Shown here one piece after another: positions 1 through 47,376 of a DNA stretch of 47,376 nucleotides. The position numbers and the translations under genes are program-made. Numbering within the stretch: the first letter of the stretch is position 1; each line of letters opens with the position of its first letter. The notes under the pieces are model-generated. The model ran no database searches. It was given only the letters and a program-made list of their open reading frames with translations, and was not told the origin of the DNA. The stretch lies in the IMG/VR virus record IMGVR_UViG_3300029577_000022, positions 1 to 47,376 of that record; one strand, 5' to 3'. The DNA is from a virus.

Positions 1-89
1 CAAGAACATGCTGACTTATGGAAGTATATTGTAAAGAATTATGGTAGAACTCCTACTAATAAAATGTACAAGAAGTTAGGTGGCATACT
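1..89. repeat. Terminal overlap, copy A (identical to 47288..47376)
   Basis: Base-by-base comparison shows caagaacatgctgac...ggtggcatact at both ends, 89/89 identical. Confidence 0.95.
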
Positions 90-585
90 AGGCGTAAAAA
101 CAGATGACACGGTTACATCGAAACAAAAAACTGCTATTCTTAATAGGATGAAATTTAATGGCTATAAAAAAGGTTCTGAACACATAGACAAGAGTCAATT
201 AGCATGGACACAAGAAGATAAACGAGAAATGATTTATCGTGCTTCTGACGGTGCAGTTTTAACAAAACTTAATCCAGGAGATAAAGTGTTCACAAATGGG
301 ATGACTGAGAATCTTTGGAAAATGGCACAGATGAATCCTTCTTTATTGACCTCTGGTATCAACTATATGCCGAATTTACCTGAAATAACAAAATCTGCTG
401 GCACATCTACGATTGTTGAAGTTGGTGATATCGTGATGAACGGTGTCAATGATCCTGAAACATTCGGTAGACAGTTGCGAGAAGAAATTTGTAAGAACGG
501 AAAGACAACACAGTGTATTACTGAAGCAGTTTCTGCCAAGCAACTTGGTAAAAATGGTGTAGGTAATGCAAGGTTATATAAGTAA
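1..585 (+). CDS. Tail tape measure protein, C-terminal part (continuation of 40304..47376 across the circular junction)
   Basis: Frame 1 is open from base 1 and is the same frame as 40304 once the 47,287 offset is applied. The segment AWTQEDKREMIYRASDGAVLTKLNPGDKVFTNGMTENL resembles the conserved C-terminal TMP module. Stop at 583..585. Confidence 0.8.
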   Translation, partial: QEHADLWKYIVKNYGRTPTNKMYKKLGGILGVKTDDTVTSKQKTAILNRMKFNGYKKGSEHIDKSQLAWTQEDKREMIYRASDGAVLTKLNPGDKVFTNGMTENLWKMAQMNPSLLTSGINYMPNLPEITKSAGTSTIVEVGDIVMNGVNDPETFGRQLREEICKNGKTTQCITEAVSAKQLGKNGVGNARLYK

Positions 586-4365: not shown

Positions 4366-4659
4366 ATGAGATTACTTAAACAGGATGTAATAGACAAATT
4401 AGCTGAAAAGACAGGCTTATATAAAAAAGATGTACGAGCTGTATTAGATTCATTCCATGAATTAGTTTATGAAGAATTGGATGCAGATAATTCAATTCTT
4501 ATCACAAATCTTTTTAAGGTTGAGCCAATAACAGTTGATTCAAGAAAAAGATACAGTCCGTATGTTGATGATAATTACTACATTGAGAAAGAACATAAGA
4601 CAGTAAAAATCACACCAGCTTCAAATCTATTGGATAGCTTGAAGAAAGAGGAAGAGTAA
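4366..4659 (+). CDS. hup: HU/IHF-family DNA-binding protein
   Basis: 97 aa. KQDVIDKLAEKTGLYKKDVRAVLDSFHELVYEEL and the overall layout match the HU fold pattern. Strong ribosome-binding site. Confidence 0.75.
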   Translation: MRLLKQDVIDKLAEKTGLYKKDVRAVLDSFHELVYEELDADNSILITNLFKVEPITVDSRKRYSPYVDDNYYIEKEHKTVKITPASNLLDSLKKEEE

Positions 4660-12920: not shown

Positions 12921-12960
12921 CATATAAAAAAATATGGTGTAACTTTATCGGTTACACCAT
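12921..12960 (-). terminator. Rho-independent terminator for the minus-strand gene 12989..13297
   Basis: Stem atggtgtaac/gttacaccat. On the minus strand it is followed by attttttta. Confidence 0.7.
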
Positions 12961-12988
12961 TGTATTATAATTATATTATGTTATTGCT

Positions 12989-13297
12989 TTATTCTTCTAA
13001 ATCTGTCAAGTGTGGCAAGTCTGAAATAATATCATTGTAACTTTTTCCGTTTGGATTGTCTAACTGTTTTCCTATGTCTCCTAGTTCAAAACAAATATAA
13101 TCATATTTATCATAGTACCAACCGCACACATCATCAAGCGGTATACAATTATCAAGTGATATATAATTTTGTGGGATAACTTCAATCTCTTTTATAACTG
13201 TTTCTGTTTTGGCTTGTGTAGTTCCTACCATGTAAGAGCATACCGACATAGTAACCATAATTGCGATAATTCCGATTTTTTTTATTGATTTCTTCAT
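12989..13297 (-). CDS. Small secreted protein or lipoprotein candidate
   Basis: Signal-peptide-like MKKSIKKIGIIAIMVTMSVCSYMVG. AAAGGAG ribosome-binding site. Confidence 0.65.
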   Translation of the reverse strand: MKKSIKKIGIIAIMVTMSVCSYMVGTTQAKTETVIKEIEVIPQNYISLDNCIPLDDVCGWYYDKYDYICFELGDIGKQLDNPNGKSYNDIISDLPHLTDLEE

Positions 13298-13325
13298 ATT
13301 GTTTTTATCTCCTTTTCTATGTATC

Positions 13326-13362
13326 GGGTGCAGGCTTGTAAGTCATGCACCCTTATTTTTTT
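13326..13362 (+). terminator. Plus-strand-oriented intrinsic terminator between two minus-strand genes
   Basis: Stem gggtgca/tgcaccc is followed by ttattttttt on the + strand only. Confidence 0.45.
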
Positions 13363-13873
13363 ACGCTTCTTTCAGTCTCTTTGTTGCTTCTGTCTGTACT
13401 TCTGTACTTCCGTAATAGTTCCGTATATCATCCATAGATAATTTTTTCTTGCTTCTCTTTCTGAATGCTTCTGTATGAAAATACCACTTCTTTTTCTCTC
13501 TTGCCCATTTAAACCCTAGAGCCTTTAAGCTGTCTTTGTGTTCGTATGTGTTACCATCAACCCATATCCAACAACCGACTATTTCAATATTGATATTTTC
13601 CATTGTAACAATATGCTGTAATACTTCCCTTAATTTTTCATCTTCTGAAAAATCATACTTCATATTATTATAATCTGTTTTGTTGTCGGTGGTGTCGCTT
13701 GCGTTGTGTTCGTGTCTGTCTTTTAATGTTTTGAATAATGTATCATATTCTACATTTATTTCTTTTGTGGCTTCCGTTGATCCGTTTGGGTTGTCTGGGT
13801 GGTACTTCTTTAATAGCTCTTTGTACTGTTTTCTTAATTCTTCTAATGTTTCTACATTCTTAAAATATTTCAT
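13361..13873 (-). CDS. J-domain (DnaJ-like) protein
   Basis: LRKQYKELLKKYHPDNPNGS contains the HPD motif. Strong AAAGGAGG ribosome-binding site. Confidence 0.8.
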   Translation of the reverse strand: MKYFKNVETLEELRKQYKELLKKYHPDNPNGSTEATKEINVEYDTLFKTLKDRHEHNASDTTDNKTDYNNMKYDFSEDEKLREVLQHIVTMENINIEIVGCWIWVDGNTYEHKDSLKALGFKWAREKKKWYFHTEAFRKRSKKKLSMDDIRNYYGSTEVQTEATKRLKEA

Positions 13874-14650: not shown

Positions 14651-14780
14651 AAACGTGGTACGAGGATAAGAAGAAAGCAGACAAATGAGCACAACGAGGC
14701 GAACGGTCAAGCCGTGGTATTCAATTACAACTTGCCTATCGGCAGTAATGCCACATTATAACAAGAAAGAAGGTGAGACA

Positions 14781-15359
14781 ATGACAAGTGCAGATTTAAC
14801 AGTATTAGAGCCATATTGTAAAGATAATATGCGACTGCTAAAAAAGTTATCAAAGTCAATCTTTTTGAGGCTTAACGAGCCATTGACAGAAGCAGACTAT
14901 GACGATTTTTACAGCATTGCAAATATGACATTGTGGCAGTGTTACAACTCTTATAGCACCGATAAAGGAGCAAGTTTTAATACTTTTCTTTGTGATTGCT
15001 TAAAGAAAAAATTTAAGACAGAGATAAGAGACAGACACAGAGAAAAACGAGTTATCAATCAGTTTACAACCTCATTAGATGCAACTAATGACAGCGAGGA
15101 AGAATGTAGCATACTGGATTTTATACCATCCGATTTTGACACATTTGAGGAAGTAACCAAAAACAACAACGAACAATTTCAAGACAAGGTACAACAGTAC
15201 ATTTCAAAACTTTCTAATCAGCAGGTAAATATATTAAACCTTTTGATTGATGGGTACACACCTAAAGACATACGGCAGATTTTAGAAATTTCATCAACTG
15301 AATATGCTGAAAATATGAAGATTATGAGAAGTTTTGAAAATGTAAAGATTTTATTTTAG
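14781..15359 (+). CDS. Sigma-70-family (ECF-like / conjugative-transposon type) RNA polymerase sigma factor
   Basis: Region-2-like DYDDFYSIANMTLWQCYNSY...FNTFLCDCLKKKFKTEIRDRHREKR and region-4 HTH LSNQQVNILNLLIDGYTPKDIRQILEIS. ATG 14781 follows GAAGGTGAG. Confidence 0.7.
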   Translation: MTSADLTVLEPYCKDNMRLLKKLSKSIFLRLNEPLTEADYDDFYSIANMTLWQCYNSYSTDKGASFNTFLCDCLKKKFKTEIRDRHREKRVINQFTTSLDATNDSEEECSILDFIPSDFDTFEEVTKNNNEQFQDKVQQYISKLSNQQVNILNLLIDGYTPKDIRQILEISSTEYAENMKIMRSFENVKILF

Positions 15360-15371
15360 GAGGTAATCACT

Positions 15372-16469
15372 ATGAAGAATATCAGAAAGCAGACATACAC
15401 ATTAGAGCAGTATTTAAAGGACATGAAGGCAGAAAAAATCAGAACAGACCAGGAATGTCAGAGATTATCAGGACAATGGAATCCAAACATGGTAAATGAA
15501 CTGATTGCATCGGTTCTGACAGATGATTATATCCCACCTATTATTTTAGGTGAGGAAACAACATCAAACGGAATCACAAGACAATGGATAATTGACGGAT
15601 TGCAGAGAAGTAGCACATTATCATTATTCAGATATGGAAACGCAAAAATAACAAAGAATCTTGATGAATATATGGTTACTTATCAGACAAAGGCAACCGA
15701 TGCAGATGGAAATATAAAGCGAGACAAGCAGGGCGAAATTGTATGGGAGAATGTAGATTTTGACATTCGTAACAAGACATACGAGCAGTTACCAGAAGAA
15801 TTGAAAGAGGTATTCAATGGCTATCAGTTAGAGGTTGTAATTCATCAGAATTGCGACACAACGCAAATTTCAAAATTGGTGCGCAAACTGAATAACTGCA
15901 AGCCGATGAATCAAGCCCAACGTGCTTTTACATATATTGATGCGTTTGCAAGGGAAATAAGAGAAATTGCAGACAACAGATTTTTCAAAGATATGTACTC
16001 TTGCAACAACAAAGACAGAATAAACGGAACTTTTGAAAGAGCCATCGGAGATATGGTTATCTTATCTGAATATCCTAATCAGTACAGAAAAGATACAAAG
16101 ATAGGATTCAAGTGGTTAAATGAAAATGCAACCATTCTTGATTTTGAAAATCTTGATGATTTACTCACAAGGTTAGTAGAATCAACGGAAATCACAAGCG
16201 AGATAAGGGAACTGTTCAATAGAAAGAGTGCATATATCTTTGTGGCAGCATTTAAGGCATTTACAAAGTTAGGAAGGGAAGATAAAGCGTTTGGAGAGTT
16301 CCTGCATTGGTTAATTGCAGAAGGTAAAAATACAGAAATCAATGGAAAGACATGGACTGAATTAGATATAGACCGTTCTACAAGGGATAGCAATGTAGTA
16401 CACGGAAAACTTGATTATCTTACAGCACTTATCAATCAGTATTTTACAGAGGTTAAGAAAGTAGCATAA
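15372..16469 (+). CDS. DUF262 / ParB-like nuclease-domain protein
   Basis: ECQRLSGQWNP...YIPPIILGE...WIIDGLQRSSTL matches the DGQQR-type motif. Confidence 0.7.
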   Translation: MKNIRKQTYTLEQYLKDMKAEKIRTDQECQRLSGQWNPNMVNELIASVLTDDYIPPIILGEETTSNGITRQWIIDGLQRSSTLSLFRYGNAKITKNLDEYMVTYQTKATDADGNIKRDKQGEIVWENVDFDIRNKTYEQLPEELKEVFNGYQLEVVIHQNCDTTQISKLVRKLNNCKPMNQAQRAFTYIDAFAREIREIADNRFFKDMYSCNNKDRINGTFERAIGDMVILSEYPNQYRKDTKIGFKWLNENATILDFENLDDLLTRLVESTEITSEIRELFNRKSAYIFVAAFKAFTKLGREDKAFGEFLHWLIAEGKNTEINGKTWTELDIDRSTRDSNVVHGKLDYLTALINQYFTEVKKVA

Positions 16470-17735: not shown

Positions 17736-17761
17736 AGGACAGTCTGAAATATGGCTGTCCT
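17736..17761 (+). terminator. Hairpin, possibly a terminator or attenuator
   Basis: Stem aggacag/ctgtcct. The T-run is weak. Confidence 0.35.
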
Positions 17762-17783
17762 TAATGGAAAAGAGGTTGATATT

Positions 17784-18311
17784 ATGGCTTATATACTTAC
17801 AAATGGAAATTATTACATAACAGTTACAGACACAGGAAAGACAACAAAAACGAATAATATAGATGAAGCAAAGTTATTTGCAACTATTGGTAAAGCACAA
17901 GAGAAAATCAAGAAAGCACCAGCAAAAACGAAAAATTATTATATTGAGGATATAGATACGAATGTAAAAATACAATGTAATGCAGATGGAAAAATCAAGC
18001 GAAAAAGATATTCTGATAATGTAAAGAAATTGCTTTATATGAATGCAAATGGAAAATGTGCTTTATGTGGTAGGAAGTTGTTATTTGAAGATATAACGAT
18101 TGACCATAAAATTCCTTTGGCTTGTGGCGGTGCTGATTCTGTGGAAAATTTACAAATTTGTTGTCTGGAAGATAACCAGTTCAAAGGTTCAATAATGCCT
18201 GATGATTTTATGGAACGGATAACGAGAATTTTTCTATATCAGATGGATCAGAAAGAAAGCAAGCGGTTATTATGGAAGATTGTGCATAAAATATTAAATA
18301 AGATGATATAA
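17784..18311 (+). CDS. HNH endonuclease
   Basis: The motif CALCGRKLLFEDITIDHKIPLACGGADSVENLQICCLEDNQFKG is present. ATG 17784 lies after the hairpin, whereas the track start 17751 lies inside it. Confidence 0.8.
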   Translation: MAYILTNGNYYITVTDTGKTTKTNNIDEAKLFATIGKAQEKIKKAPAKTKNYYIEDIDTNVKIQCNADGKIKRKRYSDNVKKLLYMNANGKCALCGRKLLFEDITIDHKIPLACGGADSVENLQICCLEDNQFKGSIMPDDFMERITRIFLYQMDQKESKRLLWKIVHKILNKMI

Positions 18312-23957: not shown

Positions 23958-24230
23958 TTGAAAGTCATTAGTTATTTGATACTTAGTTGGTTATATAGAA
24001 CTGATGCAAAAAGCAAAATTATAGCAGCCACAAGAAAAATGATACTTGATGGACTTGCAGAAGAAGGAACAAGTTATTGTGATAAGACCATTTATAACAA
24101 CCTTAGAAATCTGATACAAGGTGGGTATGTAAAAAATGGAATGCCAGTAGGTAATACATATACATATTACATTACATCTAAAGGTATGAATTGGTTAAAA
24201 GAAATGGAAGAGGAAGAAACGGAGGAATAA
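23958..24230 (+). CDS. Winged-helix DNA-binding protein, TubR-like paralog (copy 2)
   Basis: TIYNNLRNLIQGGYVKNG...TYYITSKG parallels copy 1. The TTG start lies 7 nt after GGAGGT, and ATG 23943 is an alternative. Confidence 0.5.
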   Translation: MKVISYLILSWLYRTDAKSKIIAATRKMILDGLAEEGTSYCDKTIYNNLRNLIQGGYVKNGMPVGNTYTYYITSKGMNWLKEMEEEETEE

Positions 24231-24235
24231 TTATT

Positions 24236-25339
24236 ATGAACAAAAAAATTAACGCAGGATTAAAAATTACAGGCATTGGATGTGGTCAGTGCGGAACACA
24301 GATTATTGCAGAAATCGAAAGAGCAGTAAATCTTCTTGATGGTGATAAGTCAAATCTTTCATTTATTGGAATTAACACAAGTACAGAAGATTTAGCATCT
24401 GTTAGCTTATCTCACAAGATTCATATCAATAATTCTAAGGGTGCTGCTTGCGATAGGGATAAGAGTACAGAAGCATTGGCAGAAGGCATTGATGAAATTT
24501 TAGAAGAATTACAGTCTTACATTATTGAGGATTCAATTATTTTTATTGCATTTTCATGTGGTGGAGGAACAGGATCGGCTATTGCACCTATTCTTAGTGG
24601 AATATTAAAGGAAATGGGATATTCGGTTGGTATGATTCCTGTATTGCCAGCAGATACAGAACCATTAAAGGTAAGAGATAATGCAAGATTGACATTTAAT
24701 GAGATTGATGAATTAAAGCCAGAAATGGGAAGTATTTTTATCCTTGACAATAATGCAAGCGACAAAATTACTGTAAATAAAGTGTTCGCTTCATTATTTA
24801 CAGGTATTCTTTGTATCAATAATAAATCCCAGGATGGAAATATGGATTTGGCAGAAATTGAAGCTTGCTTAAAGTGTCCGTCATTCTCTGTCATTACAAA
24901 AACCAATGCAACAAAGGGAACGACTGCAAATATCATTGATATTTTAAATAAGGATAACAATATTTTTGCAAAGAGAGAGGACAAGACTGTTACGATTATG
25001 GGTATTTCTGAAGCTGTATCAGCAAAGGAAAGTAAGATTGATATTATTCAGTTGCGTAAAGAGGTAGGAACAGCACCAACAGAATTTCATGGTTATCTGT
25101 CTGAATCAGAAGAAAATGTAATTATTCTTAGTGGTTTAACAATGCCATACAGTAGATTGGATTCAATGACAGATGCTATTGAGAAAGAAGCTGTGAATGT
25201 TCAAAACTCTATGAAAGCATTAACAGAAGTAAGAACTGCAAAATCATTAGATATATTTGGACAGAAGGCAGAGCCAGTTGTAGCACCAAAGAAGTCAAAT
25301 AGATTAGATGCACTAAAAGCAAGAAGAATCAGCAAGTAA
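24236..25339 (+). CDS. tubZ: Tubulin/FtsZ-superfamily GTPase, TubZ/PhuZ-like
   Basis: T1-like GIGCGQCGTQI and the tubulin signature SCGGGTGSAIAP are present. 367 aa. ATG follows GGAGGA. Confidence 0.75.
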   Translation: MNKKINAGLKITGIGCGQCGTQIIAEIERAVNLLDGDKSNLSFIGINTSTEDLASVSLSHKIHINNSKGAACDRDKSTEALAEGIDEILEELQSYIIEDSIIFIAFSCGGGTGSAIAPILSGILKEMGYSVGMIPVLPADTEPLKVRDNARLTFNEIDELKPEMGSIFILDNNASDKITVNKVFASLFTGILCINNKSQDGNMDLAEIEACLKCPSFSVITKTNATKGTTANIIDILNKDNNIFAKREDKTVTIMGISEAVSAKESKIDIIQLRKEVGTAPTEFHGYLSESEENVIILSGLTMPYSRLDSMTDAIEKEAVNVQNSMKALTEVRTAKSLDIFGQKAEPVVAPKKSNRLDALKARRISK

Positions 25340-30368: not shown

Positions 30369-30962
30369 ATGAAGCAATATGTCAATTTGGAAACTGTAGA
30401 TATGTTTAAAAATAAATCAATTGAAATTATGCCATTAACTGTATTAACAGGAGTGAATGGTAGTGGAAAAACAACAATTCTAAAAGCTATTGAAGATCAA
30501 TTCTCTAACACGAGACATTATAAATGGACTGGATTTTCTATATTTAAAGAACATTTTGAAGGGGAAAAAGGAGATATTCTTTTATTTGAGCAACCAGAAG
30601 CAGGACTCCATCCAAAATTTCAGCTTGCACTTGCAGATATTATACTTGCCTATGCTCAAGCTGGACGAACGGTTGTTGTAGAAACTCATAGCGATCATAT
30701 TATAAATAGATTGACAAGGCGGTTTATTGAGAAACAAGAGGTTAGAGATATACTTAAAATTTATTTCTTGAAACATGAGGCTGATTTAGAACAAAACGTA
30801 TTCGAAATTACAAATATCCATACTGATGATGTAGATGGATGTATATGTGATGATAAAGATTTTTTTTATCAGTTTGCAGATGAGACATTAGAAATAACTA
30901 GTGCAGGATATAAAAATTTGCAAAAGAAATGTAAAGGACATGAAAGACAAGAGATATTTTGA
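30369..30962 (+). CDS. Miniaturised ABC/OLD-type ATPase with a DUF3696-like tail
   Basis: Walker A GVNGSGKTT, Walker B/D-loop ILLFEQPEAGLHP and H-loop VVETHSDHIINRL are present. The tail reads DKDFFYQFADETLEI. Only about 35 aa separate Walker A from Walker B. Confidence 0.6.
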   Translation: MKQYVNLETVDMFKNKSIEIMPLTVLTGVNGSGKTTILKAIEDQFSNTRHYKWTGFSIFKEHFEGEKGDILLFEQPEAGLHPKFQLALADIILAYAQAGRTVVVETHSDHIINRLTRRFIEKQEVRDILKIYFLKHEADLEQNVFEITNIHTDDVDGCICDDKDFFYQFADETLEITSAGYKNLQKKCKGHERQEIF

Positions 30963-36262: not shown

Positions 36263-36472
36263 AATTGCATTTTTCGGAAAAGTGACCTTCAATATTGTGC
36301 CTATGTAGGCAACATTTTATTTTGAAATAAGCAATGAAATCTACATTTCTTGTCAAGCATTTTCAATAGTCGTTGCATGAGTTTTCATAGCTTATGTAAT
36401 GGCTTTTCAAGCGTTACTCACGCAGTATTCAAAAGTAATGATGATAACTGAATATGGAACACAAAAAAATCA

Positions 36473-36500: not shown

Positions 36501-36596
36501 ATTAAGTGGAGAGCAGTGTAAACATAACTTAGTAGAATAGAGAGGTGTGTTATTATAGGAAAGAAGACTATAAACTATACAAAAGAATTAAAGCCA

Positions 36597-39398
36597 GTGT
36601 ACATAGAGTCAATGCAAGCAAATCAAGTGTATATAGATGCGTTAAAAGATGAGGGCATTGTCATTCACAAGATAAAAGATGAATGGGTAGAATTGAACAA
36701 GGTATCTACTAGAAAAGCAGTACTTGCAGATAGCTTATTTCTTAGATTTATGGATGAAAGTATTACAAGAATTGGTGGTAAATTTAGCAAGGACTTCATT
36801 ATATTAAAGTTTGATTATGATGCTGAATATAAAATTAATGGTGGAGAACCCCAAAAGATAAAGAAAGACGATTTAAGAACATATTACTATACGAATGGAG
36901 TGACATTTACTTCTGAGGTCAAGGACACAAAGAAGAGGAAACAGGCAAAGGAAGATGAAAGATGTCATCCAATACATTATAAGATGCTTATGCGCTCCCC
37001 TGGTAAAGCAAAAGATGGAGAATGTGTATTTATTAGGGATAATCTGTATCATAAAGCTATAAATTTTTTGACTATGGGTTTATACGACATAATGGATGAG
37101 CAATCAAAACAGAATCCAGATAAAATATTTAAGATAGTCGAATTATCAGCATATCTTACGTTAACAACAGCATCTGCCAATGGTTATATAAGGATTCCTT
37201 GGAATAGAATACTTGTTGTTCCAGATGAGGAAGTTTATTCCAAGCCACAAAAGGCTGTAATTGTAAGCAATAAATCTGTGTCATATACATATGATGAAAA
37301 AGAGTTTTTTATTCATTTTGACGATTCACATATTGAAGAACTTATTAACAAGAAGGGCTGTACATTTGATAAGAATAAATCAATCAATGAAAATCTTAAA
37401 TACATTGAGAAGACAAAGGAAGCTCTTAAAGATAATGGTATTAGATGGAATGGAAACTATGGTCATTCAGAGATAACTAAAAAAGAAGAAATAAGACAAG
37501 AATGTGATGCAAAATATGTTTCTGATGAGAGGGTAAAAAATATTCTGTGGGACGGAATGGGATTAATTGATGAATCAATTTTTCCTAAAAATATGAATGG
37601 ATTTATATACTGTAGGTCACATTTCTTCAAGAGTTGTTTGTTCTGTGGAAATATTCAAGAATTTTTCAGAGACTATTGTGCGGAAAATGGAATTGACTAC
37701 AATAGTTTTACTACTGAGAAAATTGATTTATTTGGAAGAAAACTAAGCTTATCTAATATTGATGTTGTTATTACAGATAAATCACTAAAATGGTTGAAGT
37801 TTGTTGATATGATGGGAGGGACGCAAAAAGAAGCGTTTAAATTTTATAAAAATTATATGAAAGAACATGATAATTGGTTTACGATTGTAAAGACAGCTCA
37901 TCCTAGTAAATGGGGAGGTATGCAGTTAATGGCTTATCAAATGAATAATTCACTGCCTACTACAGATGAAGAGATTCTTTCCCGAATTGCAGAAGATTCA
38001 GTTGATTATATTAAAGAGTTAAAGAAAACAACGGATACAGCATATTTACAATATCTTAATCAAAAGAAAAATAATTTCAATATTAATGAAGTTATTTTGG
38101 CATTGGTAAAATGGAATCCTGATTTTAGGAGGACAGCTTTTTTTAGGGATAAAAAGACTAAAGATATAAGCAAACTGAAAAATGAATATTTTAAACAGGG
38201 AAGATTGCTACAGAATGGGGACAATCTTACAGTTATGGGAAACCCGATTGCTTTATTAATGAAAGCAGTAGGTGGAAATCCAATAGAAGAAAATATTTTT
38301 GAGGTGGAAAAGGATGCAATTCAATGTTATACAGCAAGGTTTAAAGATGGAGAAAAATTAGCCGCTTTTAGAAGTCCACATAATTCTCCGAATAATATTC
38401 TACATTTTCATAATGTCTATTCAGACAAATTATCCAAGTACTTTGCAAATTTAGGACGAAATGTGATTGTGATAAATATGGTTGGAACAGATGTACAAGC
38501 TAGAGCCTCGGGAATGGATGAAGACACCGACTTTGTTTATACAACAAATCAACCAGACCTTGCGGAACTTGCGAGAAAAGCTTATACAAATTATCCGACT
38601 ATCATCAATGGTGTGGCAGAAAAGGGGAATAGTTCATATCATTTTAGATTAGAAGATTTTGCACAAATGGATAATCAAATTGCAACAGCACAGCAATCTA
38701 TTGGCACCTCTACAGATACAGCGCAATTAGCCTTGAGTTATTACTATGATGAGGGAATGGATGAGGGGCAAGATGGGGAGGAATTGAAGAAATGTTTTGT
38801 TATATTATCTGTAATTGGTCAGATTAGTATTGATCTTGCTAAAAAGGAATTTGATATAGATGTAGTAAACGAAATTAATCGTATTAAAAGACTACCATGT
38901 ATGAAAGGTAAGGATATACCTGAGTTTTTTGCAAGTACAAAGAAAAGTCGAAATAATAAAGAATTTAATGAAGAAGAAATTCGCTCGATGAATTGTCCTA
39001 TGGATATAATTGCTAGAAATATAGATAGTAGAGTTGTGGGACAAGCTATGGGTGTAACAAGACTTCCTATATCAAAATTTCTTAATAGCAACATTAAAGG
39101 CAAGGGAAATAAATATAAATGGAAAAAATTTATAGAAGCGTCAGAAGTGTATAATAGGTCAATAAAGTATATTGAACAACACAAAACTCAATATACCAAA
39201 AATAGTTACATAGATTTAAAAATGGACTGTATGAGTCATTTTTTGAATTGCACAAACAATAATTTAGATCAAGAGACAGTTATGTTGTTGGTAAAATATG
39301 CTTTTAGTAATAATAATTCAGATGTATGCCAAACAATTTTAAACTTCCTTTATATGAATAATCGTGATAAATTTCTAAATTGTTTTGTGAAAAAGTGA
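36597..39398 (+). CDS. YonO-like single-subunit RNA polymerase candidate (two-barrel, eukaryotic-RdRP-related family)
   Basis: LAAFRSPHNSPNNILHFHNV...RNVIVINMVGTDVQARASGMDEDTDFVYTTNQ parallels the RdRP/YonO pattern R-P-x-x-x-P-x-x-I ... V-I-V-F ... S-G-G-D-L-D-G-D. The upstream WDGMGLIDESI and SAYLTLTTAS...ILVVPDEE resemble earlier conserved RdRP blocks. The start is uncertain (GTG 36597 or ATG 36612). Confidence 0.55.
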   Translation: MYIESMQANQVYIDALKDEGIVIHKIKDEWVELNKVSTRKAVLADSLFLRFMDESITRIGGKFSKDFIILKFDYDAEYKINGGEPQKIKKDDLRTYYYTNGVTFTSEVKDTKKRKQAKEDERCHPIHYKMLMRSPGKAKDGECVFIRDNLYHKAINFLTMGLYDIMDEQSKQNPDKIFKIVELSAYLTLTTASANGYIRIPWNRILVVPDEEVYSKPQKAVIVSNKSVSYTYDEKEFFIHFDDSHIEELINKKGCTFDKNKSINENLKYIEKTKEALKDNGIRWNGNYGHSEITKKEEIRQECDAKYVSDERVKNILWDGMGLIDESIFPKNMNGFIYCRSHFFKSCLFCGNIQEFFRDYCAENGIDYNSFTTEKIDLFGRKLSLSNIDVVITDKSLKWLKFVDMMGGTQKEAFKFYKNYMKEHDNWFTIVKTAHPSKWGGMQLMAYQMNNSLPTTDEEILSRIAEDSVDYIKELKKTTDTAYLQYLNQKKNNFNINEVILALVKWNPDFRRTAFFRDKKTKDISKLKNEYFKQGRLLQNGDNLTVMGNPIALLMKAVGGNPIEENIFEVEKDAIQCYTARFKDGEKLAAFRSPHNSPNNILHFHNVYSDKLSKYFANLGRNVIVINMVGTDVQARASGMDEDTDFVYTTNQPDLAELARKAYTNYPTIINGVAEKGNSSYHFRLEDFAQMDNQIATAQQSIGTSTDTAQLALSYYYDEGMDEGQDGEELKKCFVILSVIGQISIDLAKKEFDIDVVNEINRIKRLPCMKGKDIPEFFASTKKSRNNKEFNEEEIRSMNCPMDIIARNIDSRVVGQAMGVTRLPISKFLNSNIKGKGNKYKWKKFIEASEVYNRSIKYIEQHKTQYTKNSYIDLKMDCMSHFLNCTNNNLDQETVMLLVKYAFSNNNSDVCQTILNFLYMNNRDKFLNCFVKK

Positions 39399-39450: not shown

Positions 39451-39921
39451 AGCATTTTCAATATCTCCTTATGGAAGAAAGTACTGCGCATGAAAAGACC
39501 GTAGGCTGAGTAGTGCGTGGGAAACTTCCAACAACAATTTAATCAATAGCTCCTATAAATCACTTCTATAGGATTCACTATTATTTCACTAAAGTAAGGT
39601 AGGGTGTGATAGCTCTGCCATTCTCCGATAATATCACCCTATGGGTGTTTATTATATGTTTTGAATATCATATTATTGGCAGGATTTAATTGTCCTGCCA
39701 GACAAGGGTAATAATGGTTTCTGAGGTGGGCAGTAACTTTTATTATAAGCGTTGATGTGCTGGCTCAAACACGGCATGTTAGCATAAAGTACACACGTTG
39801 TATTTCAAAACAATAAACAATGATTAAGTGGACAGACTGATTCAAACTAGGTCTGTCCTCCTAATTGTACGAATTTAAAATATTACCAGTGTGATTGATT
39901 TTTGCACTGGTCTATTTTTTT
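39451..39921 (+). ncRNA. Hairpin-rich non-coding transcript or leader candidate ending in an intrinsic terminator
   Basis: Stems seen are tggaag..cttcca, cctata..tatagg, agggtg..caccct, ggcagga..tcctgcc and ggacagac..gtctgtcc. The last hairpin is accagtg..cactggt followed by ctattttttt. Confidence 0.35.
39885..39921 (+). terminator. Rho-independent terminator upstream of the HTH-TMP gene pair
   Basis: 7-8-bp stem followed by a T7 run. Confidence 0.65.
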
Positions 39922-39973: not shown

Positions 39974-40150
39974 ATGACACAGGAAGAACTTAGGGCTATG
40001 CTAAATAAGAGATTGATTCGAGAAAAAGCAAGTTATATCTGTTCTGTTACAGGACTAAATAAAGATGTATTATCACGATTCAAAACAGGAAAAATTGACT
40101 TATATCCTAATCTATTCGAGAGATTAGAAGACTATCTATTAAATTCATAA
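39974..40150 (+). CDS. Small XRE/Cro-like HTH protein (58 aa, below the cutoff)
   Basis: MTQEELRAMLNKRLIREKASYICSVTGLNKDVLSRFKTGKIDLYPNLFERLEDYLLNS. GGAAGGAG ribosome-binding site. Confidence 0.55.
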   Translation: MTQEELRAMLNKRLIREKASYICSVTGLNKDVLSRFKTGKIDLYPNLFERLEDYLLNS

Positions 40151-40303: not shown

Positions 40304-43300
40304 TTGAATAACTTTATTTTACAGTTGGTTGCTGGTCTTAATAAGACAAAAAGCAAGCAACAGATTAAGTCAGACGCAAAAAGTCTTGGCGACATGAAGT
40401 TCGTCAAGCTGATTGGTAACCTTGATATGCCAAAAACAAGGAAAGCAATCAAAGCACAGTTGAAGGGATTAAATAATCTTACATTCAACATCACACCGAA
40501 TGTAAATACAAAAGGTGTACAGACAGCAACCAAACAGGCAATTAACAATGCACAGAGGGTTGCAAATAGTAATAAGGTTCATCTGAACTTTGATACAAGC
40601 AAGCAACAGTTAGTGAACCAGATTAAGATTCTGGGAAGGAATAATAATAAACTTTTCAATAATCATGAAATGACCGCTAAATACAATCAGTTGCTTAATG
40701 CCGCTAATGTAGCAAAGAGTACAGGAGAACTAAAAACTCTTAGAGGTGAGTTGTCGGCATTTAAGACGGAGCTTGTAGCAACGAATAATGCAGGTATGAC
40801 TTGGGGAAGTAAATTCAAAGAATCTGTTAAGAGTTATACGAAATTTTTTAGTGGTGCAAGTCTGGTTTATGCCATTTCTAATCAGGTCAGAAATGCAGCA
40901 ACCGAAGCAAAGACATTAGATGATAGTCTTGTAAATCTTCAGAAAGTAACAGATGAAATTTCTGACAGAGATGCGTTATACAAGTATTTTAACAAATCTC
41001 TTAGCAAGGCACAGGAACTTAATGTAAAAGTTGGTTCATTGATTGACGCTGTAACAGAGTTTAAAAAGCTTGGTTGGGATTTAGACGATGCAGAACTTGG
41101 TTCGAAGTGGGCAAACATTTTATCAAACGTTGGAGATCTTAATATTGATACGGCAATCGGTTCAATTAAAACCTCTATTGCTTCATTTGATGAAATTGGT
41201 GGATATGGTAATGACCAGATGGACAAGAAACTTGAAGCTTATGCAGACCTCATCAATAATATGTCAAACAAGTACAGTATTGATGCGGAAGGGTTAGCCG
41301 AAAGCATTAGATTATCGGCTGGTACATTGACAGAAGCACATATGAGTATTGAACAAGCTGCTACAATGTTTGCTACAGCTAATAAATACTATAATGATCC
41401 GTCATACCTCGGTAACACAGCAAAGATCGGTTCATTAAGAATGAGAGCTTCATCTGGTGACACAGATGCTATTGAAGAGTTGCAGGAGATGGGCGAAGAA
41501 GTTGACGATTTAGCAACAGCCACAAGTAACTTGCGTGAAAAGCTCATGGCATTAACTGGTGTTGATATTATGGAAGATGAGCATACATTCAAATCTTATT
41601 ATGACCAGTTATACGAGATTTCACAAGTTATGGATAAGTTGGATGATACCTCACGTGCAAATGTTCTTGAGACTATATTCGGTAAATCGAGAAGTGCAGC
41701 AGGTGCCGCTATTTTATCTGGTATGAAGGAATCTGCATCAGCTTATGAAGATGCAATCAATAGTGCAGGAAGTGCTACAGAAGAGTATCAAACTTGGATG
41801 ACCAGTGCTGACGCAGCGTGTCAGAGGTTTTCTAACACTCTTACAGAGACATATCAGAGTATTATCAATGGTAATACAGTACGTGACCTTGCCAATTTAG
41901 GTTCGGCAGTTTTGGAATTTGCTAATAATTGGGGAATTGTAGAAGGTACGCTAAAAGGTGTAATTGCACTCAATCTTGGTAAATTTATTGCTACTGGTGG
42001 TATGGCACTCATTACAGCTACAAAACAAGTAGAGCAATATGGAAAAGCCTTACAGAAGGCAAGTAATGTTCCGAATGGTAACTTATCTGCTAGATTCCAG
42101 GCATTAAAGAGTATTGCACAGGCAACAAGTACATTGACAACAGAACAGTTAAGAAATGTATTAGCCACAAACACACTTACTCAGGCTGACAGAGTGCGTA
42201 TCTTACAGATGCAAGGTATGACAAAAGAGATGGCATTACAGAAACTTGCTGAAATGAATTTAACGCAAGCGACAAATGCACAGACCGCAGCTAATACAGC
42301 TAGTACAGCAAGTACATTTTCGCTTAAAGCGGCTATGACAGGACTTGGTGCGACATTAAAGAGTGTGTTTCTTAGCAATCCAGTAGGAATTGTACTTATG
42401 GGTATAAGTCTTGGAGTTAGTGCAGTAACATCCGCAATATCTAAGCATAATCAAAAGTTAGAGGAAGATCGGCAGAAAGCTAAAGAAGCAGCAGACGCAG
42501 CCAATACATTAGGTGATGAGATTGCTACATTAGCAAACAAATACATCCAGTTATCGGATGCAGTAAAAACAGACGCAAGTGCAAAAGAAGATTTAATGAC
42601 TACACAGACAGAGTTATTAAAGAAACTTGGACTTGAAGGAGAAAGCATTGATGATTTGATTGCGAAATATGGTTCTTTATCAAATGCCATTAAACAAGCA
42701 AGCATTGATTCATTGAAAAATCAACAGATTGACTTGATTGCTGGTGTAAATGCAGCAAAAGAAGAGTTGATGGATGTTGCAAAAGATAACTTCTGGGGTA
42801 CTAACAATATTATTAGTGCATCGGGAGAAGAAGCAGTAAAAGCATTTAAAGAGCTTGAAAAAGCTGGTGTAATTGATAGTGGTTCATATGGTACTGGTGG
42901 TGGTCAGTTAGTTTTAATTGGCGATGATACAGTTGAGGGAGCATTAGAAAATTACAAAAAACTCGAAGATGCAGTAAACGCATTAAGAGATTCAGAAGCA
43001 TTCACGGCTGATGAATTATCAGACAATTCACTATTTAATTCTATCTATAGTAGGTATAGTGAGATGAAGGAATCAGTAGAGGCATACAATTCATCTATTG
43101 ATAACTTAAATGAAAACTTGGCTCAACAGACAATGTTGATAGCGTTACAGGGTAATGAATTACCTAAGACAGAAGAAGACTTTAACAAATTTAAGCAAGA
43201 GCTGATTGATACAGCAGTTGCAAGTAAACAATTTATTGGAAACGAAAAGGAGATTACCGATGCGATTAACAATTATCTATCGACAGTTCCTGAGTTTGAA

Positions 43301-46300
43301 GGCTATTACAGCATTCCTCTGGAAAACGAACTTGATAAAGTAGATGAATTGTTGAATCAAGAGGACTTTTCAAAAACATTTACTGATACGCTTGCACAAG
43401 TTCAGGCTTTATCGGATGGTTTAGACCAACTTGATAAAATCTATGCTGATGTTTACAACAAAGAGGATTTTGATTGGTCATCTATTCTAAATAATGACGA
43501 CTTCAAAGAACAATTCGGGTCATTAAAAGATACTACAGAAGAATATGCAAATGCATATAATAATTTTATCAAAACAGTAAGCAATTCTCCGTCTGATTTG
43601 TCGGCTTGTCAATCAGCATTTGATAATCTTGCATCGGCATATATTTATAATTCTGATGCACTAAAAAATGTAACAGAAGAGACAAAAACAGCTACAGTGG
43701 CTATGCTTGAGCAAATGGGTGTTGCTAATGCATCTGAAATTGTTGATTATCAATTAGCCGCAAGCAAGGAGTATGCTGCACAGACAGGCAGAGACTTAAA
43801 AAATGCTACATTGGAAGAACTCGTTGCATTTGCACAGGAAGCAGATATGTCAGATGTGACAAAAGCTTCTCTAGCAAGTTACATAGCAGAAAAAATACGT
43901 GCAGCAAGTATTACAATCACCACTTCTGCGGATATTGCAAATCTTACAGCTTTATGTTCGCAACTTGGAGTCGCAGGAACTGCACTACAACAGTTTGCTC
44001 GCTTAAAAGCTATCGCAATGGATACAAGTGGAAAATATACAGATGGTTATAAAGAATATGCTACTACTGCGGCTGATCAGATTTTACAAAACGCTGTGAG
44101 CAAAGCAACAAGTGCGTATAAACCACAAGTTAACTATTCTGGTGGTGCATCTACTAAATCTGCAATAGATAAAGCCAATAAAGCAGCGAAGGACTCTGCT
44201 AAAGATGCAAAAGAAACCGCACAAAACATCGACTGGATCGAAACGAAATTAAAATTGGCTTCTAAGGAAACAGAAAAGCTTAGCAAATCTTTCGACAAAG
44301 CGTTTGGTATGAATCAGACAAGAGAAAGATACCAAGCATATATTTCTCAGATAGAATCCGAGATCCATGACAATACAACCGCCGCACAGGTATATCAAGA
44401 GAAGTTAAATCAGATTGGTTTATCCTATGAGTGGATTGCAAAGATTCAGTCAGGTGCATTTTCTATTGACAGTATTACAGACGAAAATCTCAAAACTCAG
44501 ATATCCGAATATCAGACATATTCAGATAAGTTAAATAGCTGTTACGACACTATTGAGAGTCTTGAAGAAGAACGTCTGCAAGCTTCTGTTAATTATGCTG
44601 AAAAATTAATTGACTCCCATGAAAAAGAAATAGATTCGATTAATAAACTGATTGATCGTAGAAAAGCATTAGTTTCTTTAAAGGAAACATTCGGTTTATC
44701 TGCTTCCAAATCTGACTTGAAATATCAACAGGATCAGTATGAACAGGAAATTGATGCGCTTGAAAGACAGAATAAAGAAATATACGATCTCATGTGGACT
44801 ACTACTTATGGTGACGAAGCATGGCAAAAGTATAACGACCAGATGATTGAAAATACTTCCAGTATTCAAGATCTCACACAGTCTCTTGCTGATTTAGCAT
44901 CTGAAATGGCTAATCTTCCGATTGACAAGTATGAAAAAGCTTTAGATAAGATTTCTGCAAAAAATGATTTACTTGATGCAAAACTTGAGAATGCTACGAG
45001 CGATAAAGCTAAGAGTAAAATTATTGGTAGTCAGTTGAAGCTTACTAGGAAGAAAGATAACAGTGCTCAGTCTGCGGCTAAAACGACACAAAGTAATTTG
45101 AATCAGTCTGTTAAGGATTTAAAAACTGCAACGAAAAAGGATAATAATATATCTGTTTACAACGTTGACGCTTCGGGTCCCAATGTAAAAGCAAGAACTG
45201 CGGTAAATGGCTACTATAAAAAAGTACAGAATTATACCAAGGCAAAGAAACAAATTCCAGCTTCTTTAATTTCTAAAATTTCTGGTGACGGATACTCTAC
45301 ATTATCAAAAGCATGTGCTAATTACAATGCTGCTTTAGTTGCCAACGACACAGCACAAGCAACGGCTGCTTTAAGTAGAGAAACTATCAGACAGGAACTC
45401 GCTGATTTAGCGGAACAGAGAGCGAGTCTTGCAAAGACAACTGCTGATTCCAAAGTTGAGAAATATGATTCTAAAGACGAACTGTATGATGCTAAACTCG
45501 ACAACGCTACTTCTACTTCTTCTAAGAATAAACTGATTGACAGAAAGATTTCTAATATCAACAATCGTCAGAGTGCGTATAATACTGCGGTTAAAACTGA
45601 TAATAAGAATATCAAATCAGCACAGAAAAATATCAGCAAAATCAAGTCTACGAAAGAGAATAAGAAGGTTCTCACTTCTATCAAGAAGACTGCTAAAGCT
45701 GGGAAACGTATTTCCCAATCTTTGTTAAACAAAGCTGCAAAACTGAATGATGGTGGAAAGTTATATGATGCATGTATTCAGTATAACGCTTATTTAGATG
45801 CGAAAGAAGCCGACAAAGCTACTGCTGATTTATACAAAGAAACAGCAAAACAGGATAAGGCTACTCTTGCAAAAGAAAAGTTTGATAATATTGCATCCAA
45901 CTATGATAATAAAATTTCTAGCAATGAGCAGAAAAAGACAGAAATAAATAATAGAATTTCTCTCGTAGAGGAATTTGGTGAACAGGCAAATGTATCTGAT
46001 TATAAGTCACTTATCTCTGCTGAAAATGGCGAATATCAAAAACTCATTAAAGAGCGTGAAGAACTTCGGAGAAATTTAGAAGAGTCTGTTGTAAATGGTT
46101 CTATCAAAAAAGGCAGTGATGAATGGTATGATATGGTCGCTAAAATCAATGATGTAACAAATGCCATAGATGAATCAATTCAATCAATTAAACAATACCA
46201 GAACGCTCTTCGTCAATTAAAATGGGATACTTTTGACAAGTCCATGGAAACTGTAAAACGTGTCAATAGTGAAGCTGATTACTATATTGATCTTTTGAGT

Positions 46301-47376
46301 CATAAAGATATGACTGATAAAGACACTGGTAATTTCACTGAATATGGTATTGCTACAATTGGATTGCACAAGACGAACTATGACAATTATATTGCACAGG
46401 CAGAAGCATATCAGTCTGAATATGATAAAATTATGAAACAGATTGAGAAAGGCGAATTGTCTGCATCTGATGAAAATGTTATTCAACGTCTGCGTGATTT
46501 ACAGGATGCTCATAGAGAGGCGAAGAAATCTGCCGAGGATGAGTTAGAGTCTATTAATGATCTTGTGAAACAGGGCTATGAAGCACAAACAGATGCGCTG
46601 AGTAAACTGATAGAAAAGTTCAAAAAGTTAAAAAATAACGCTCTTGACTATTATAAATATGCTAAGTCTATAATAGAAAAAACTAAGCAGATTGCAGCAT
46701 TACAGAAACAGTTAATTGCTTATAATGGCAATGATTCCGAAGAATCTCGTGCGACAATTCAGAAGTTAAAAGTACAGCTTGAAGAATCAAAAAGTGATTT
46801 ACAGGATACTATTTATGAACGGTATTTATCTGATACTGAGGATATGCTTGACGATCTGATGAGTGATTATCAGGAATTCATTGACGAAAAACTCAATGAT
46901 ACTAATAACATTCTTGACGGTATCAAAACCCTTATTGGTGGCAATGATGGTATTATTGCAACACTGAAATCCTTAGATTCAAGTCTGACAAATACTACAA
47001 AAGATCAGATTGATTCTAGTACTACCAATGGTGGTGACGGAGGACAAGGCGCAAAGGATTATGTAAATAATACTGTTACTAATGATCGGAATACTATCAA
47101 TTCATCTTATAAAACTGGACTTTTACGACCAACAGCAGTTGGTGCTATAACTCTTGATAATTCCTTGGAGTCAAAAAAGAAAAATACAACTTCTATTGAT
47201 GATAAGTTAAAAAAGGAAAAGAAAGCAGTTAAAGATGCCATTAATTCTGGTAAATCTCGCAGTAAGAAATTAACTGATAAAGAGAACCAAGAACATGCTG
47301 ACTTATGGAAGTATATTGTAAAGAATTATGGTAGAACTCCTACTAATAAAATGTACAAGAAGTTAGGTGGCATACT
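40304..47376 (+). CDS. Tail tape measure protein, N-terminal and central part. The ORF runs off the window end and continues at 1..585.
   Basis: TTG start lies 6 nt after AAAGGAG, with an in-frame TAA at 40301. The frame has no stop to the window end, which is why it is absent from the ORF track. The translation contains a TP901-type TMP core (SLVNLQKVTDE...GSLIDAVTEFKKLGW...ANVLETIFGKSRSAAGAAIL), hydrophobic segments and long coiled-coil-like stretches. Confidence 0.85.
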   Translation, partial: MNNFILQLVAGLNKTKSKQQIKSDAKSLGDMKFVKLIGNLDMPKTRKAIKAQLKGLNNLTFNITPNVNTKGVQTATKQAINNAQRVANSNKVHLNFDTSKQQLVNQIKILGRNNNKLFNNHEMTAKYNQLLNAANVAKSTGELKTLRGELSAFKTELVATNNAGMTWGSKFKESVKSYTKFFSGASLVYAISNQVRNAATEAKTLDDSLVNLQKVTDEISDRDALYKYFNKSLSKAQELNVKVGSLIDAVTEFKKLGWDLDDAELGSKWANILSNVGDLNIDTAIGSIKTSIASFDEIGGYGNDQMDKKLEAYADLINNMSNKYSIDAEGLAESIRLSAGTLTEAHMSIEQAATMFATANKYYNDPSYLGNTAKIGSLRMRASSGDTDAIEELQEMGEEVDDLATATSNLREKLMALTGVDIMEDEHTFKSYYDQLYEISQVMDKLDDTSRANVLETIFGKSRSAAGAAILSGMKESASAYEDAINSAGSATEEYQTWMTSADAACQRFSNTLTETYQSIINGNTVRDLANLGSAVLEFANNWGIVEGTLKGVIALNLGKFIATGGMALITATKQVEQYGKALQKASNVPNGNLSARFQALKSIAQATSTLTTEQLRNVLATNTLTQADRVRILQMQGMTKEMALQKLAEMNLTQATNAQTAANTASTASTFSLKAAMTGLGATLKSVFLSNPVGIVLMGISLGVSAVTSAISKHNQKLEEDRQKAKEAADAANTLGDEIATLANKYIQLSDAVKTDASAKEDLMTTQTELLKKLGLEGESIDDLIAKYGSLSNAIKQASIDSLKNQQIDLIAGVNAAKEELMDVAKDNFWGTNNIISASGEEAVKAFKELEKAGVIDSGSYGTGGGQLVLIGDDTVEGALENYKKLEDAVNALRDSEAFTADELSDNSLFNSIYSRYSEMKESVEAYNSSIDNLNENLAQQTMLIALQGNELPKTEEDFNKFKQELIDTAVASKQFIGNEKEITDAINNYLSTVPEFEGYYSIPLENELDKVDELLNQEDFSKTFTDTLAQVQALSDGLDQLDKIYADVYNKEDFDWSSILNNDDFKEQFGSLKDTTEEYANAYNNFIKTVSNSPSDLSACQSAFDNLASAYIYNSDALKNVTEETKTATVAMLEQMGVANASEIVDYQLAASKEYAAQTGRDLKNATLEELVAFAQEADMSDVTKASLASYIAEKIRAASITITTSADIANLTALCSQLGVAGTALQQFARLKAIAMDTSGKYTDGYKEYATTAADQILQNAVSKATSAYKPQVNYSGGASTKSAIDKANKAAKDSAKDAKETAQNIDWIETKLKLASKETEKLSKSFDKAFGMNQTRERYQAYISQIESEIHDNTTAAQVYQEKLNQIGLSYEWIAKIQSGAFSIDSITDENLKTQISEYQTYSDKLNSCYDTIESLEEERLQASVNYAEKLIDSHEKEIDSINKLIDRRKALVSLKETFGLSASKSDLKYQQDQYEQEIDALERQNKEIYDLMWTTTYGDEAWQKYNDQMIENTSSIQDLTQSLADLASEMANLPIDKYEKALDKISAKNDLLDAKLENATSDKAKSKIIGSQLKLTRKKDNSAQSAAKTTQSNLNQSVKDLKTATKKDNNISVYNVDASGPNVKARTAVNGYYKKVQNYTKAKKQIPASLISKISGDGYSTLSKACANYNAALVANDTAQATAALSRETIRQELADLAEQRASLAKTTADSKVEKYDSKDELYDAKLDNATSTSSKNKLIDRKISNINNRQSAYNTAVKTDNKNIKSAQKNISKIKSTKENKKVLTSIKKTAKAGKRISQSLLNKAAKLNDGGKLYDACIQYNAYLDAKEADKATADLYKETAKQDKATLAKEKFDNIASNYDNKISSNEQKKTEINNRISLVEEFGEQANVSDYKSLISAENGEYQKLIKEREELRRNLEESVVNGSIKKGSDEWYDMVAKINDVTNAIDESIQSIKQYQNALRQLKWDTFDKSMETVKRVNSEADYYIDLLSHKDMTDKDTGNFTEYGIATIGLHKTNYDNYIAQAEAYQSEYDKIMKQIEKGELSASDENVIQRLRDLQDAHREAKKSAEDELESINDLVKQGYEAQTDALSKLIEKFKKLKNNALDYYKYAKSIIEKTKQIAALQKQLIAYNGNDSEESRATIQKLKVQLEESKSDLQDTIYERYLSDTEDMLDDLMSDYQEFIDEKLNDTNNILDGIKTLIGGNDGIIATLKSLDSSLTNTTKDQIDSSTTNGGDGGQGAKDYVNNTVTNDRNTINSSYKTGLLRPTAVGAITLDNSLESKKKNTTSIDDKLKKEKKAVKDAINSGKSRSKKLTDKENQEHADLWKYIVKNYGRTPTNKMYKKLGGI
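47288..47376. repeat. Terminal overlap, copy B (identical to 1..89)
   Basis: Same comparison as copy A. This is the signature of a circular or terminally redundant assembly. Confidence 0.95.

Follow-up and report, generated by a model that had tools for sequence, protein, structure and literature searches.

A divergent YonO-like RNA polymerase gene followed by a conserved hairpin and a tape-measure-like gene on a compact 47-kb element

The IMG/VR virus record IMGVR_UViG_3300029577_000022, a stretch of 47,376 nucleotides (nt) analysed over its full length and called the window below, raises the question of whether a compact mobile element encodes its own single-chain RNA polymerase and, if so, which genes this enzyme would transcribe. 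An initial annotation, made from the letters of the DNA, had proposed that an open reading frame (ORF) of its plus strand encodes a two-barrel polymerase resembling YonO and RNA-dependent RNA polymerases (RdRPs), with an intact DxDxD metal-binding motif. That Firmicute phages and genomes encode YonO-like proteins has been known since 2003-2010, and activity was shown in 2017 (PMC5467207, PMC2919709). Profile homology to YonO, the predicted fold and the presence of all eight residues that define the family bear out this proposal, and identify the 933-residue protein, as judged from its sequence, as a real but very divergent YonO relative within the two-barrel polymerase family.

Homology to YonO and conservation of the catalytic residues

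Direct BLASTP of the window polymerase against SPbeta YonO (sequence taken from NC_001884) gave no match. The Pfam search recovered no family at an expect value (E) up to 1, PF05183 (RdRP) included, no NCBIfam model was matched, and the PDB sequence searches returned nothing with either the single protein or the family profile; the sole PHROGs match, phrog_8308, is of 'unknown function'. NCBIfam holds no model for YonO itself either, and PF05183, which is carried by no window-family member among the matches listed, is found in only some of the YonO relatives. Consequently, PF05183 is not a strict criterion. Clustering of the relatives of the polymerase gives at least 1,543 groups with a 90% identity threshold and 914 with one of 50%, and none of the matches listed bears an informative name. 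A weak relative annotated 'RNA-dependent RNA polymerase' is present in Enterocloster phage PMBT24 and bridges the two proteins by BLAST, the window polymerase matching the PMBT24 protein at 4e-11 and the latter matching YonO at 8e-30.

The relationship was established at the profile level by comparing with hhalign an alignment of 60 family sequences (A1), too variable to serve as seed for a genome scan, and an alignment of 20 YonO sequences (A2). The two were matched with 99.7% probability and E 3.2e-26 over 642 aligned columns, with every catalytic residue aligned. Residues D319/G320, R340, K345, K398/K401 and Q448 of the window polymerase correspond to D249/G250, R266, K271, K316/K319 and Q355 of YonO, while R592/P594, D641/D643/D645, G703 and D746/K749 correspond to R492/P494, D535/D537/D539, G593 and D625/K628. 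The conserved core of the family spans residues ~300-930. All peptide blocks quoted in the initial annotation lie where it had placed them and are conserved motifs that align with the corresponding motifs of YonO. These are FRSPHNSPNNILHFHNV (residues 591-607, nt 38367-38417) and NVIVINMVGTDVQARASGMDEDTDFVYTTNQ (residues 622-652), with the DEDTD segment GATGAAGACACCGAC exactly at nt 38517-38531, and two earlier blocks, SAYLTLTTAS (residues 184-193) with ILVVPDEE (residues 205-212) and LWDGMGLIDESI (residues 317-328), which are real shared motifs of the hhalign alignment and come in the expected order.

Two-barrel polymerases are defined by eight invariant residues (Ruprich-Robert and Thuriaux; PMC2919709), namely an aspartate and two basic residues in the beta-like barrel followed by R-x-P and DxDxD in the beta-prime-like barrel, represented in QDE-1 by D709, R738, K743, R962, P964, D1007, D1009 and D1011 (PMC2919709). 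The window polymerase has all eight, seven of them invariant in its clade, and carries both barrels in one ORF, with D319/R340/K345 first and R592/P594/D641-645 after them. The beta-like barrel residues D319-G320, R340 and K345 are encoded at 37551..37631 (+); D319, R340 and K345 match D709, R738 and K743 of QDE-1 by motif order and by the R-to-K spacing, which is 5 in both. R592-S-P594 (38370..38378, +) has R962/P964 of QDE-1 and R446/P448 of Rpb1 as its counterparts, and the metal-binding D641-E-D643-T-D645 is encoded at 38517..38531 (+). In an alignment of 112 diverse relatives, reaching down to about 27% identity, D319, G320, R340, K345, R592, P594, D643 and D645 are invariant (112/112) and D641 is kept in 111/112. 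Such conservation indicates that the quoted blocks are not chance matches, and that of the catalytic aspartates argues for an active enzyme. The DEDTD segment thus coincides with the aspartate triad of YonO and does not fall in a non-conserved loop.

The initial annotation had singled out the replacement of the glycine of DxDGD. The glycine is indeed absent, a threonine standing in its place, but this is not peculiar to the window polymerase: the clade consensus is D-x-D-S-D, and at the fourth motif position 90 of the 112 relatives have Ser, 9 have Gly and 8 have Thr. On this alignment the missing glycine is a signature of the clade and not an oddity of one gene. Since the field defines the metal motif as DxDxD, with no glycine required (PMC7824862; 10.1101/2022.12.01.518664), a threonine at this position is no bar to YonO-like membership.

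Predicted fold

The AlphaFold2 model obtained with the family alignment has a predicted local distance difference test score (pLDDT) of 92.1 and a predicted template modelling score (pTM) of 0.87. When this model was compared with the PDB by Foldseek, the top 20 matches were all RDR2 (maize, Arabidopsis) or QDE-1, with E from 1.4e-14 to 3.6e-9, probability 1.00 and a TM score of about 0.45, which shows a structural similarity to solved two-barrel polymerases. The likeness extends to the same eight active-site residues; QDE-1 and RDR2 differ from the window polymerase in sequence (9-11% identity), in their RNA-silencing biology and in a DYDGD motif that has the glycine. The largest subunits of multisubunit RNA polymerases were matched weakly, at probabilities of at most 0.15. 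In the viral structure library the best matches were two proteins from gut phages that bear the name 'RNA dependent RNA polymerase' (E 3e-50 and 3e-25), followed by A7KVB1 of phage 0305phi8-36, cited as YonO-like (PMC2919709, PMC7824862), and, weakly, by RNA polymerases of crAss-like phages.

Coding sequence and start codon

The ORF at 36597..39398 (+) opens with GTG and encodes 933 residues, in agreement with the initial annotation as to coordinates, length and quoted sequence. Its start codon is uncertain by ~45 nt and the true start may lie that far upstream. Homologs are ~15 residues longer at the N-terminus, a matching in-frame VIIGKKTINY is encoded upstream of the first canonical start, and a conserved GAGAGGTG is found ~50 nt upstream of the annotated start (window 36539-36600). 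An in-frame N-terminus in this position suggests that the start codon is non-canonical or has changed recently; the uncertainty leaves the catalytic core untouched. The gene is preceded by a 334-nt intergenic region, itself preceded by a terminator-like hairpin at 36298..36311 (+).

A tape-measure-like gene is the constant downstream partner

Bases 1-89 of the window are identical to bases 47288-47376, forming an exact 89-bp terminal repeat, and the junction is spanned colinearly by an independent viral contig of 49 kb. The window thus represents a complete element, circular or terminally redundant, with a length of 47,287 bp. The terminal identity and the colinear contig overturn the view, considered for a giant ORF that leaves the right end, that the window was cut from inside a larger phage.

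This giant tape-measure-like ORF (40304..47376, +) runs through the circular junction and continues in frame into 'ORF 64..585', its C-terminal continuation occupying 1..585 (+), where bases 1-89 repeat 47288-47376; it encodes 2,522 residues in all. The protein contains a PhageMin_Tail domain (Pfam) and matches SPbeta YomI by BLASTP at E 1e-15, and its tblastn matches are tape-measure proteins of Sundance, Bacillus and Enterocloster phages, the last of which also carry a YonO-like gene. Pfam detects no lytic domain in it, the homolog of Brevibacillus phage Sundance being annotated 'lytic transglycosylase', and no other tail genes were recognised beside it on the element. A fusion of polymerase and tape measure in the style of phage P23-45 was also considered and rejected, as the giant ORF contains no DxDxD and gives no profile match to a polymerase.

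Close relatives of the polymerase were found in 71 species-representative genomes, almost all of Lachnospiraceae and other Clostridia. The giant gene is the most constant partner of the polymerase across these loci: it was detected in 40/71, always on the same strand and downstream of the polymerase gene at a distance of 0.9-9 kb (40/40). One homolog locus has a YomN-family gene between the two. A 58-residue ORF without family match, situated at 39974..40150 (+) in the window, has a homolog near the polymerase gene in 25/71 loci.

A conserved hairpin follows the polymerase gene

The 570-nt non-coding stretch past the polymerase stop codon contains two blocks conserved in relatives. The first is a hairpin at 39472..39530 (+; covariance-model match 39480-39524) with a covarying stem and a near-invariant 23-nt loop, UGAAAAGACCGUAGGCUGAGUAG; its core ATGAAAAGACCGTAGGCTGAGTAGTG (39490-39515) was found in 30 loci on the strand of the polymerase. 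On the flanks of the loop the stem sequence varies between lineages while pairing is kept. In an ungapped alignment of 22 sequences, 86.9% of cells pair, compared with 66.9 +/- 2.3% in shuffles (0/500 reaching this value), compensatory changes are seen in 8/9 pairs (0/500 shuffles) and the covariation score is 0.632 vs 0.264; when the register is slid by +/-1 or +/-3, pairing falls to 31-42%. Many of the pairs are G-U, which restricts folding to the sense strand.

A covariance model recovered a single copy of the hairpin per locus in 41/83 sources and in 10 further viral loci, always on the sense strand (loci: window, L004, L009-L055, L073, L074, L100-L111). In 50 of these 51 loci it lies within about 130 nt past the polymerase stop codon, L037 being the exception. 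The model found no hairpin in 80 kb of SPbeta (L002, L003), in the ~9-40 kb around the YonO-type genes of PMBT24, c-st and a C. botulinum plasmid, or in the sister clade of 33-37% identity. The Rfam search of the hairpin region gave no match at E up to 1, and its reading as a known ribozyme, hammerhead-like or other, or as a member of a known RNA family was dropped. Two further candidates were rejected: a promoter of the N4 type, formed by a DNA hairpin of the template strand, by the G-U pairs that let only the sense strand fold, and a four-codon mini-ORF (MKRP-stop) in the loop, whose variable base is at codon position 1 and not 3 and whose ATG is absent in 5/25.

An exact-pattern scan of all viral contigs returned 10 loci, consisting of 4 known polymerase loci, 3 probable chance hits without a stem and 3 phage contigs, IMGVR_UViG_3300045988_122193, _135479 and _133793. 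The last are viral contigs of 88-104 kb from the same metagenome, and do not figure among the 80 listed of the 132 family-polymerase loci. They carry tandem pairs of the hairpin loop on the minus strand (L086, 3073-3163; L088, 5435-5525; L089, 3629-3719) inside arrays of transfer RNA (tRNA) genes. A suppressor tRNA with anticodon tta, itself part of the array, lies next to them, as does a RAGATH-27-like RNA (65.7 bits, short of the gathering score of 76.1). One of these tandem loops is identical to that of the window over 27 nt.

The second conserved block (39750..39860, +) is restricted to close relatives and includes a hairpin, GGACAGAC-N13-GUCUGUCC, at 39830-39858; an upstream stem possibly covaries, the number of distinct sequences being small. 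The two blocks are separated by ~220 nt (39530-39750) in the window and its closest relatives and are adjacent in L004, L011 and L012. The non-coding stretch is closed by an intrinsic-terminator-like hairpin of 10 pairs followed by a T-run (39885..39921, +).

Proposed function of the polymerase

It is likely, by analogy with YonO, that the protein is an active DNA-dependent single-chain RNA polymerase that transcribes the module downstream of its own gene. YonO transcribes the late genes of SPbeta as one operon, with its start upstream of a non-coding RNA that lacks annotation, and the activity of YonO is abolished when the aspartate triad is changed to asparagine (PMC5467207); the downstream module is, by the same analogy, the presumable target in the window. 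The polymerase would be made by the host RNA polymerase, possibly under the sigma factor encoded on the element itself, and the triad D641-x-D643-x-D645 of its beta-prime-like barrel would bind the catalytic magnesium. Without recourse to the host enzyme, the polymerase would next transcribe the same-strand module made up of the conserved hairpin, the small ORF and the 7.6-kb tape-measure-like gene, the hairpin region being a candidate for the leader or the point of entry. That the enzyme is DNA-dependent, which genes it targets and that the hairpin serves as leader or entry site are points that we infer from this parallel.

Several points weigh against this role. Among solved structures the nearest are those of RNA-dependent enzymes; apart from the tape-measure-like gene, no 'late' virion module is recognisable on the element; the terminator-like hairpin at 39885-39921 separates the conserved hairpin from the ORFs downstream; and large phages carry the conserved hairpin in tRNA arrays around which the 7-12 kb fetched contain no polymerase gene. 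To our knowledge, YonO is the only bacterial single-chain two-barrel RNA polymerase characterised biochemically, and we know of no biochemistry for any member of the window clade. Nor do we know of a promoter for any YonO-type enzyme, so that it is gene order that ties the polymerase to the genes downstream.

Cellular RdRPs and QDE-1 use RNA or single-stranded templates, and the window protein could likewise be mainly an RNA-dependent enzyme, acting on an RNA of the element by copying or extending it, with the hairpin as template, primer or recognition site. RDR2 and QDE-1 as nearest solved folds, the strand-specific, G-U-rich and so RNA-like character of the hairpin and its tight linkage to the polymerase gene in 51 loci are in keeping with such an activity. 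It is nonetheless improbable, considering that the only characterised bacterial relative, YonO, is a processive DNA-dependent enzyme (PMC5467207), that these bacteria are not known to have an RNA-mediated silencing pathway (PMC2919709) and that the hairpin is found away from any polymerase gene too.

An active polymerase could also have another job, such as replication priming or the production of regulatory or anti-defence RNA, its gene order having been co-inherited from an SPbeta-like ancestor. The polymerase and the tape-measure family co-occur in SPbeta, in PMBT24-like Enterocloster phages and in the window clade, so that their linkage could be ancestral, and a normal late gene set is absent from the element. 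Order and strand are however kept in 40/40 loci, down to about 33% protein identity and amid highly variable neighbours, and yomI of SPbeta lies on the yonO strand in the structural/late block, which depends on YonO (PMC5467207); an unrelated job is on these grounds hardly to be expected. That the protein has lost its activity and persists as a relic with a structural or regulatory function, as the absent DxDGD glycine and the lack of a Pfam RdRP match might suggest, is extremely unlikely in view of catalytic residues that are strictly or almost strictly conserved over 112 sequences and 914 clusters, of ORFs that are full-length throughout and of a motif position 4 occupied by Ser, Thr or Gly, all small residues.

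The sigma factor of the element

The initial annotation had further stated that the element encodes its own sigma factor and might constitute an autonomous transcription machine. The first statement is correct: the ORF at 14685..15359 (+) encodes a sigma-70-family factor of 224 residues (Sigma70_r2, 31.3 bits with a cut-off of 24; TIGR02937, 47.8 bits with a cut-off of 42.9; phrog_351, E 1.2e-15). The second is overstated. The sigma factor gene lies 21 kb from the polymerase gene in the window and within 10 kb of it in 11/71 genome loci, and YonO-type enzymes are without the flap domain that serves for sigma binding (PMC7824862). The most likely target of the sigma factor is therefore the host polymerase, which it would redirect. 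In four loci of the sister clade at 32-35% identity (L062, L064, L065, L069), a sigma homolog is located immediately upstream of the polymerase gene in divergent orientation (~8.3-9.4 kb, minus strand), which hints at a recurrent sigma-polymerase association with a different layout.

Other genes and distribution of the element

Many of the polymerase copies sit within large chromosomal scaffolds, which implies that the element integrates. Eisenbergiella tayi DSM 26961 and Lachnospiraceae bacterium 28-4 are examples of lysogens with an element of this kind. In the window, genes for a Tn916-type excisionase (Xis, 1724-1963, +) and a Tn916-type tyrosine integrase (Int, 2062-3255, +) are followed by one for an HU-type DNA-binding protein (4366..4659, +), a protein found near YonO genes also in SPbeta, PMBT24 and c-st. 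A TubZ-like tubulin, which is a partition protein of plasmids or prophages, is encoded at 24191..25339 (+), and the element also encodes a serine resolvase, a ClpX-like ATPase and a cold-shock-domain protein. Among ~50 window ORFs scanned no terminase, portal or capsid was recognisable by Pfam and/or PHROGs, many ORFs being without assignment and very divergent versions being possible. In IMG/VR the subclade of the window polymerase (at least 40% identity) is mostly on contigs of about 12-58 kb and the sister clade (33-37% identity) mostly on phage contigs of 80-250 kb.

Four HNH-endonuclease ORFs are present on the plus strand (8106-9365, 9432-9950, 10013-10513 and 17751-18311), the first three being clustered; that at 10013-10513 resembles a copy of the C-terminal part of 8106-9365, and phrog_953 matches both. 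A 621-residue protein encoded at 6087-7952 (+), matched by phrog_25531 of unknown function and having 447 relatives, shows invariant LDFDD, TTFSH..HKFRMIF and CCVLHDDHNPS..KYRCC, which suggest a primase-polymerase with a zinc finger; considered as a candidate virion protein, it gave an AlphaFold pLDDT of 42 and an empty PDB profile search, and it was left without assignment. The sole block of minus-strand genes (12422-13873), which includes a DnaJ-domain protein (phrog_15863), coincides with a dip of the GC (guanine-cytosine) skew at 12-14 kb. A GmrSD_N (DUF262)-like protein is encoded directly after the sigma factor gene (15372-16469, +) and a short AAA_15/AAA_21 ATPase at 30369-30962 (+); both are possible defence or anti-defence cargo.

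Comparison with known systems and significance

YonO of SPbeta (PMC5467207) is of similar size, with 839 residues compared with 933, and has both barrels in one chain in the same order with all catalytic residues aligned. SPbeta is likewise a temperate mobile element of Firmicutes with an HU-like protein and a giant YomI-type gene on the polymerase strand. The two polymerases differ in that pairwise BLAST similarity is lacking and that the motif is DNDGD in YonO and DxD(S/T)D in the window clade. The elements differ as well, SPbeta being a complete phage of 134 kb, with no counterpart of the post-gene hairpin in the 80 kb searched, and the window a 47-kb element without recognisable head genes. 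The YonO-like enzymes of PMBT24, c-st and 0305phi8-36 belong to the same superfamily branch as the window polymerase, but are encoded by complete phages of 100-219 kb. In phage c-st a YonO homolog is further found together with TubZ and with structural genes of the SPbeta-like kind; this homolog is divided into two ORFs, CST179 (N-terminal) and CST177 (C-terminal), with the unrelated CST178 between them (L008, 18616-22549), which suggests an insertion within the gene. Far more distant from the window polymerase are crAss-like gp66 and gp64/gp96 of Thermus phage P23-45, which are also single-chain two-barrel enzymes with DxDxD, the crAss-like ones giving weak fold matches; the P23-45 polymerase is fused to the tape-measure protein, whereas the two are separate genes in the window element.

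A literature search found no description of the clade of the window polymerase. What is new on the sequence evidence is a very large, unannotated and BLAST-invisible clade with a DxD(S/T)D signature, together with a conserved polymerase-hairpin-tape-measure module on a compact, head-less, integrative and TubZ-bearing element. It is conceivable, though rather doubtful, that the hairpin is the cognate cis-element of the clade, acting in initiation, as leader or in anti-termination, and that the head-less element is a satellite-like derivative of large SPbeta-like phages of Lachnospiraceae and depends on a helper for its capsids. If so, the element would have kept its own polymerase, hairpin and tape-measure gene, the parent phages would be those of 80-220 kb with the sister polymerase clade, and the 27-nt loop identity with the tRNA-array hairpins of the 88-104-kb phages would reflect shared recognition.

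Taken together, these results describe a polymerase clade that is unannotated in Pfam, NCBIfam and PHROGs, is borne mostly by gut Lachnospiraceae and has a fixed downstream partner in the giant tape-measure gene, to which the lineage on small elements adds a covarying hairpin. No known category of mobile element neatly accommodates a compact 47-kb, integrative, TubZ-partitioned element with both a polymerase and a tape-measure gene, and the hairpin provides a concrete candidate for how YonO-type polymerases may find their targets.

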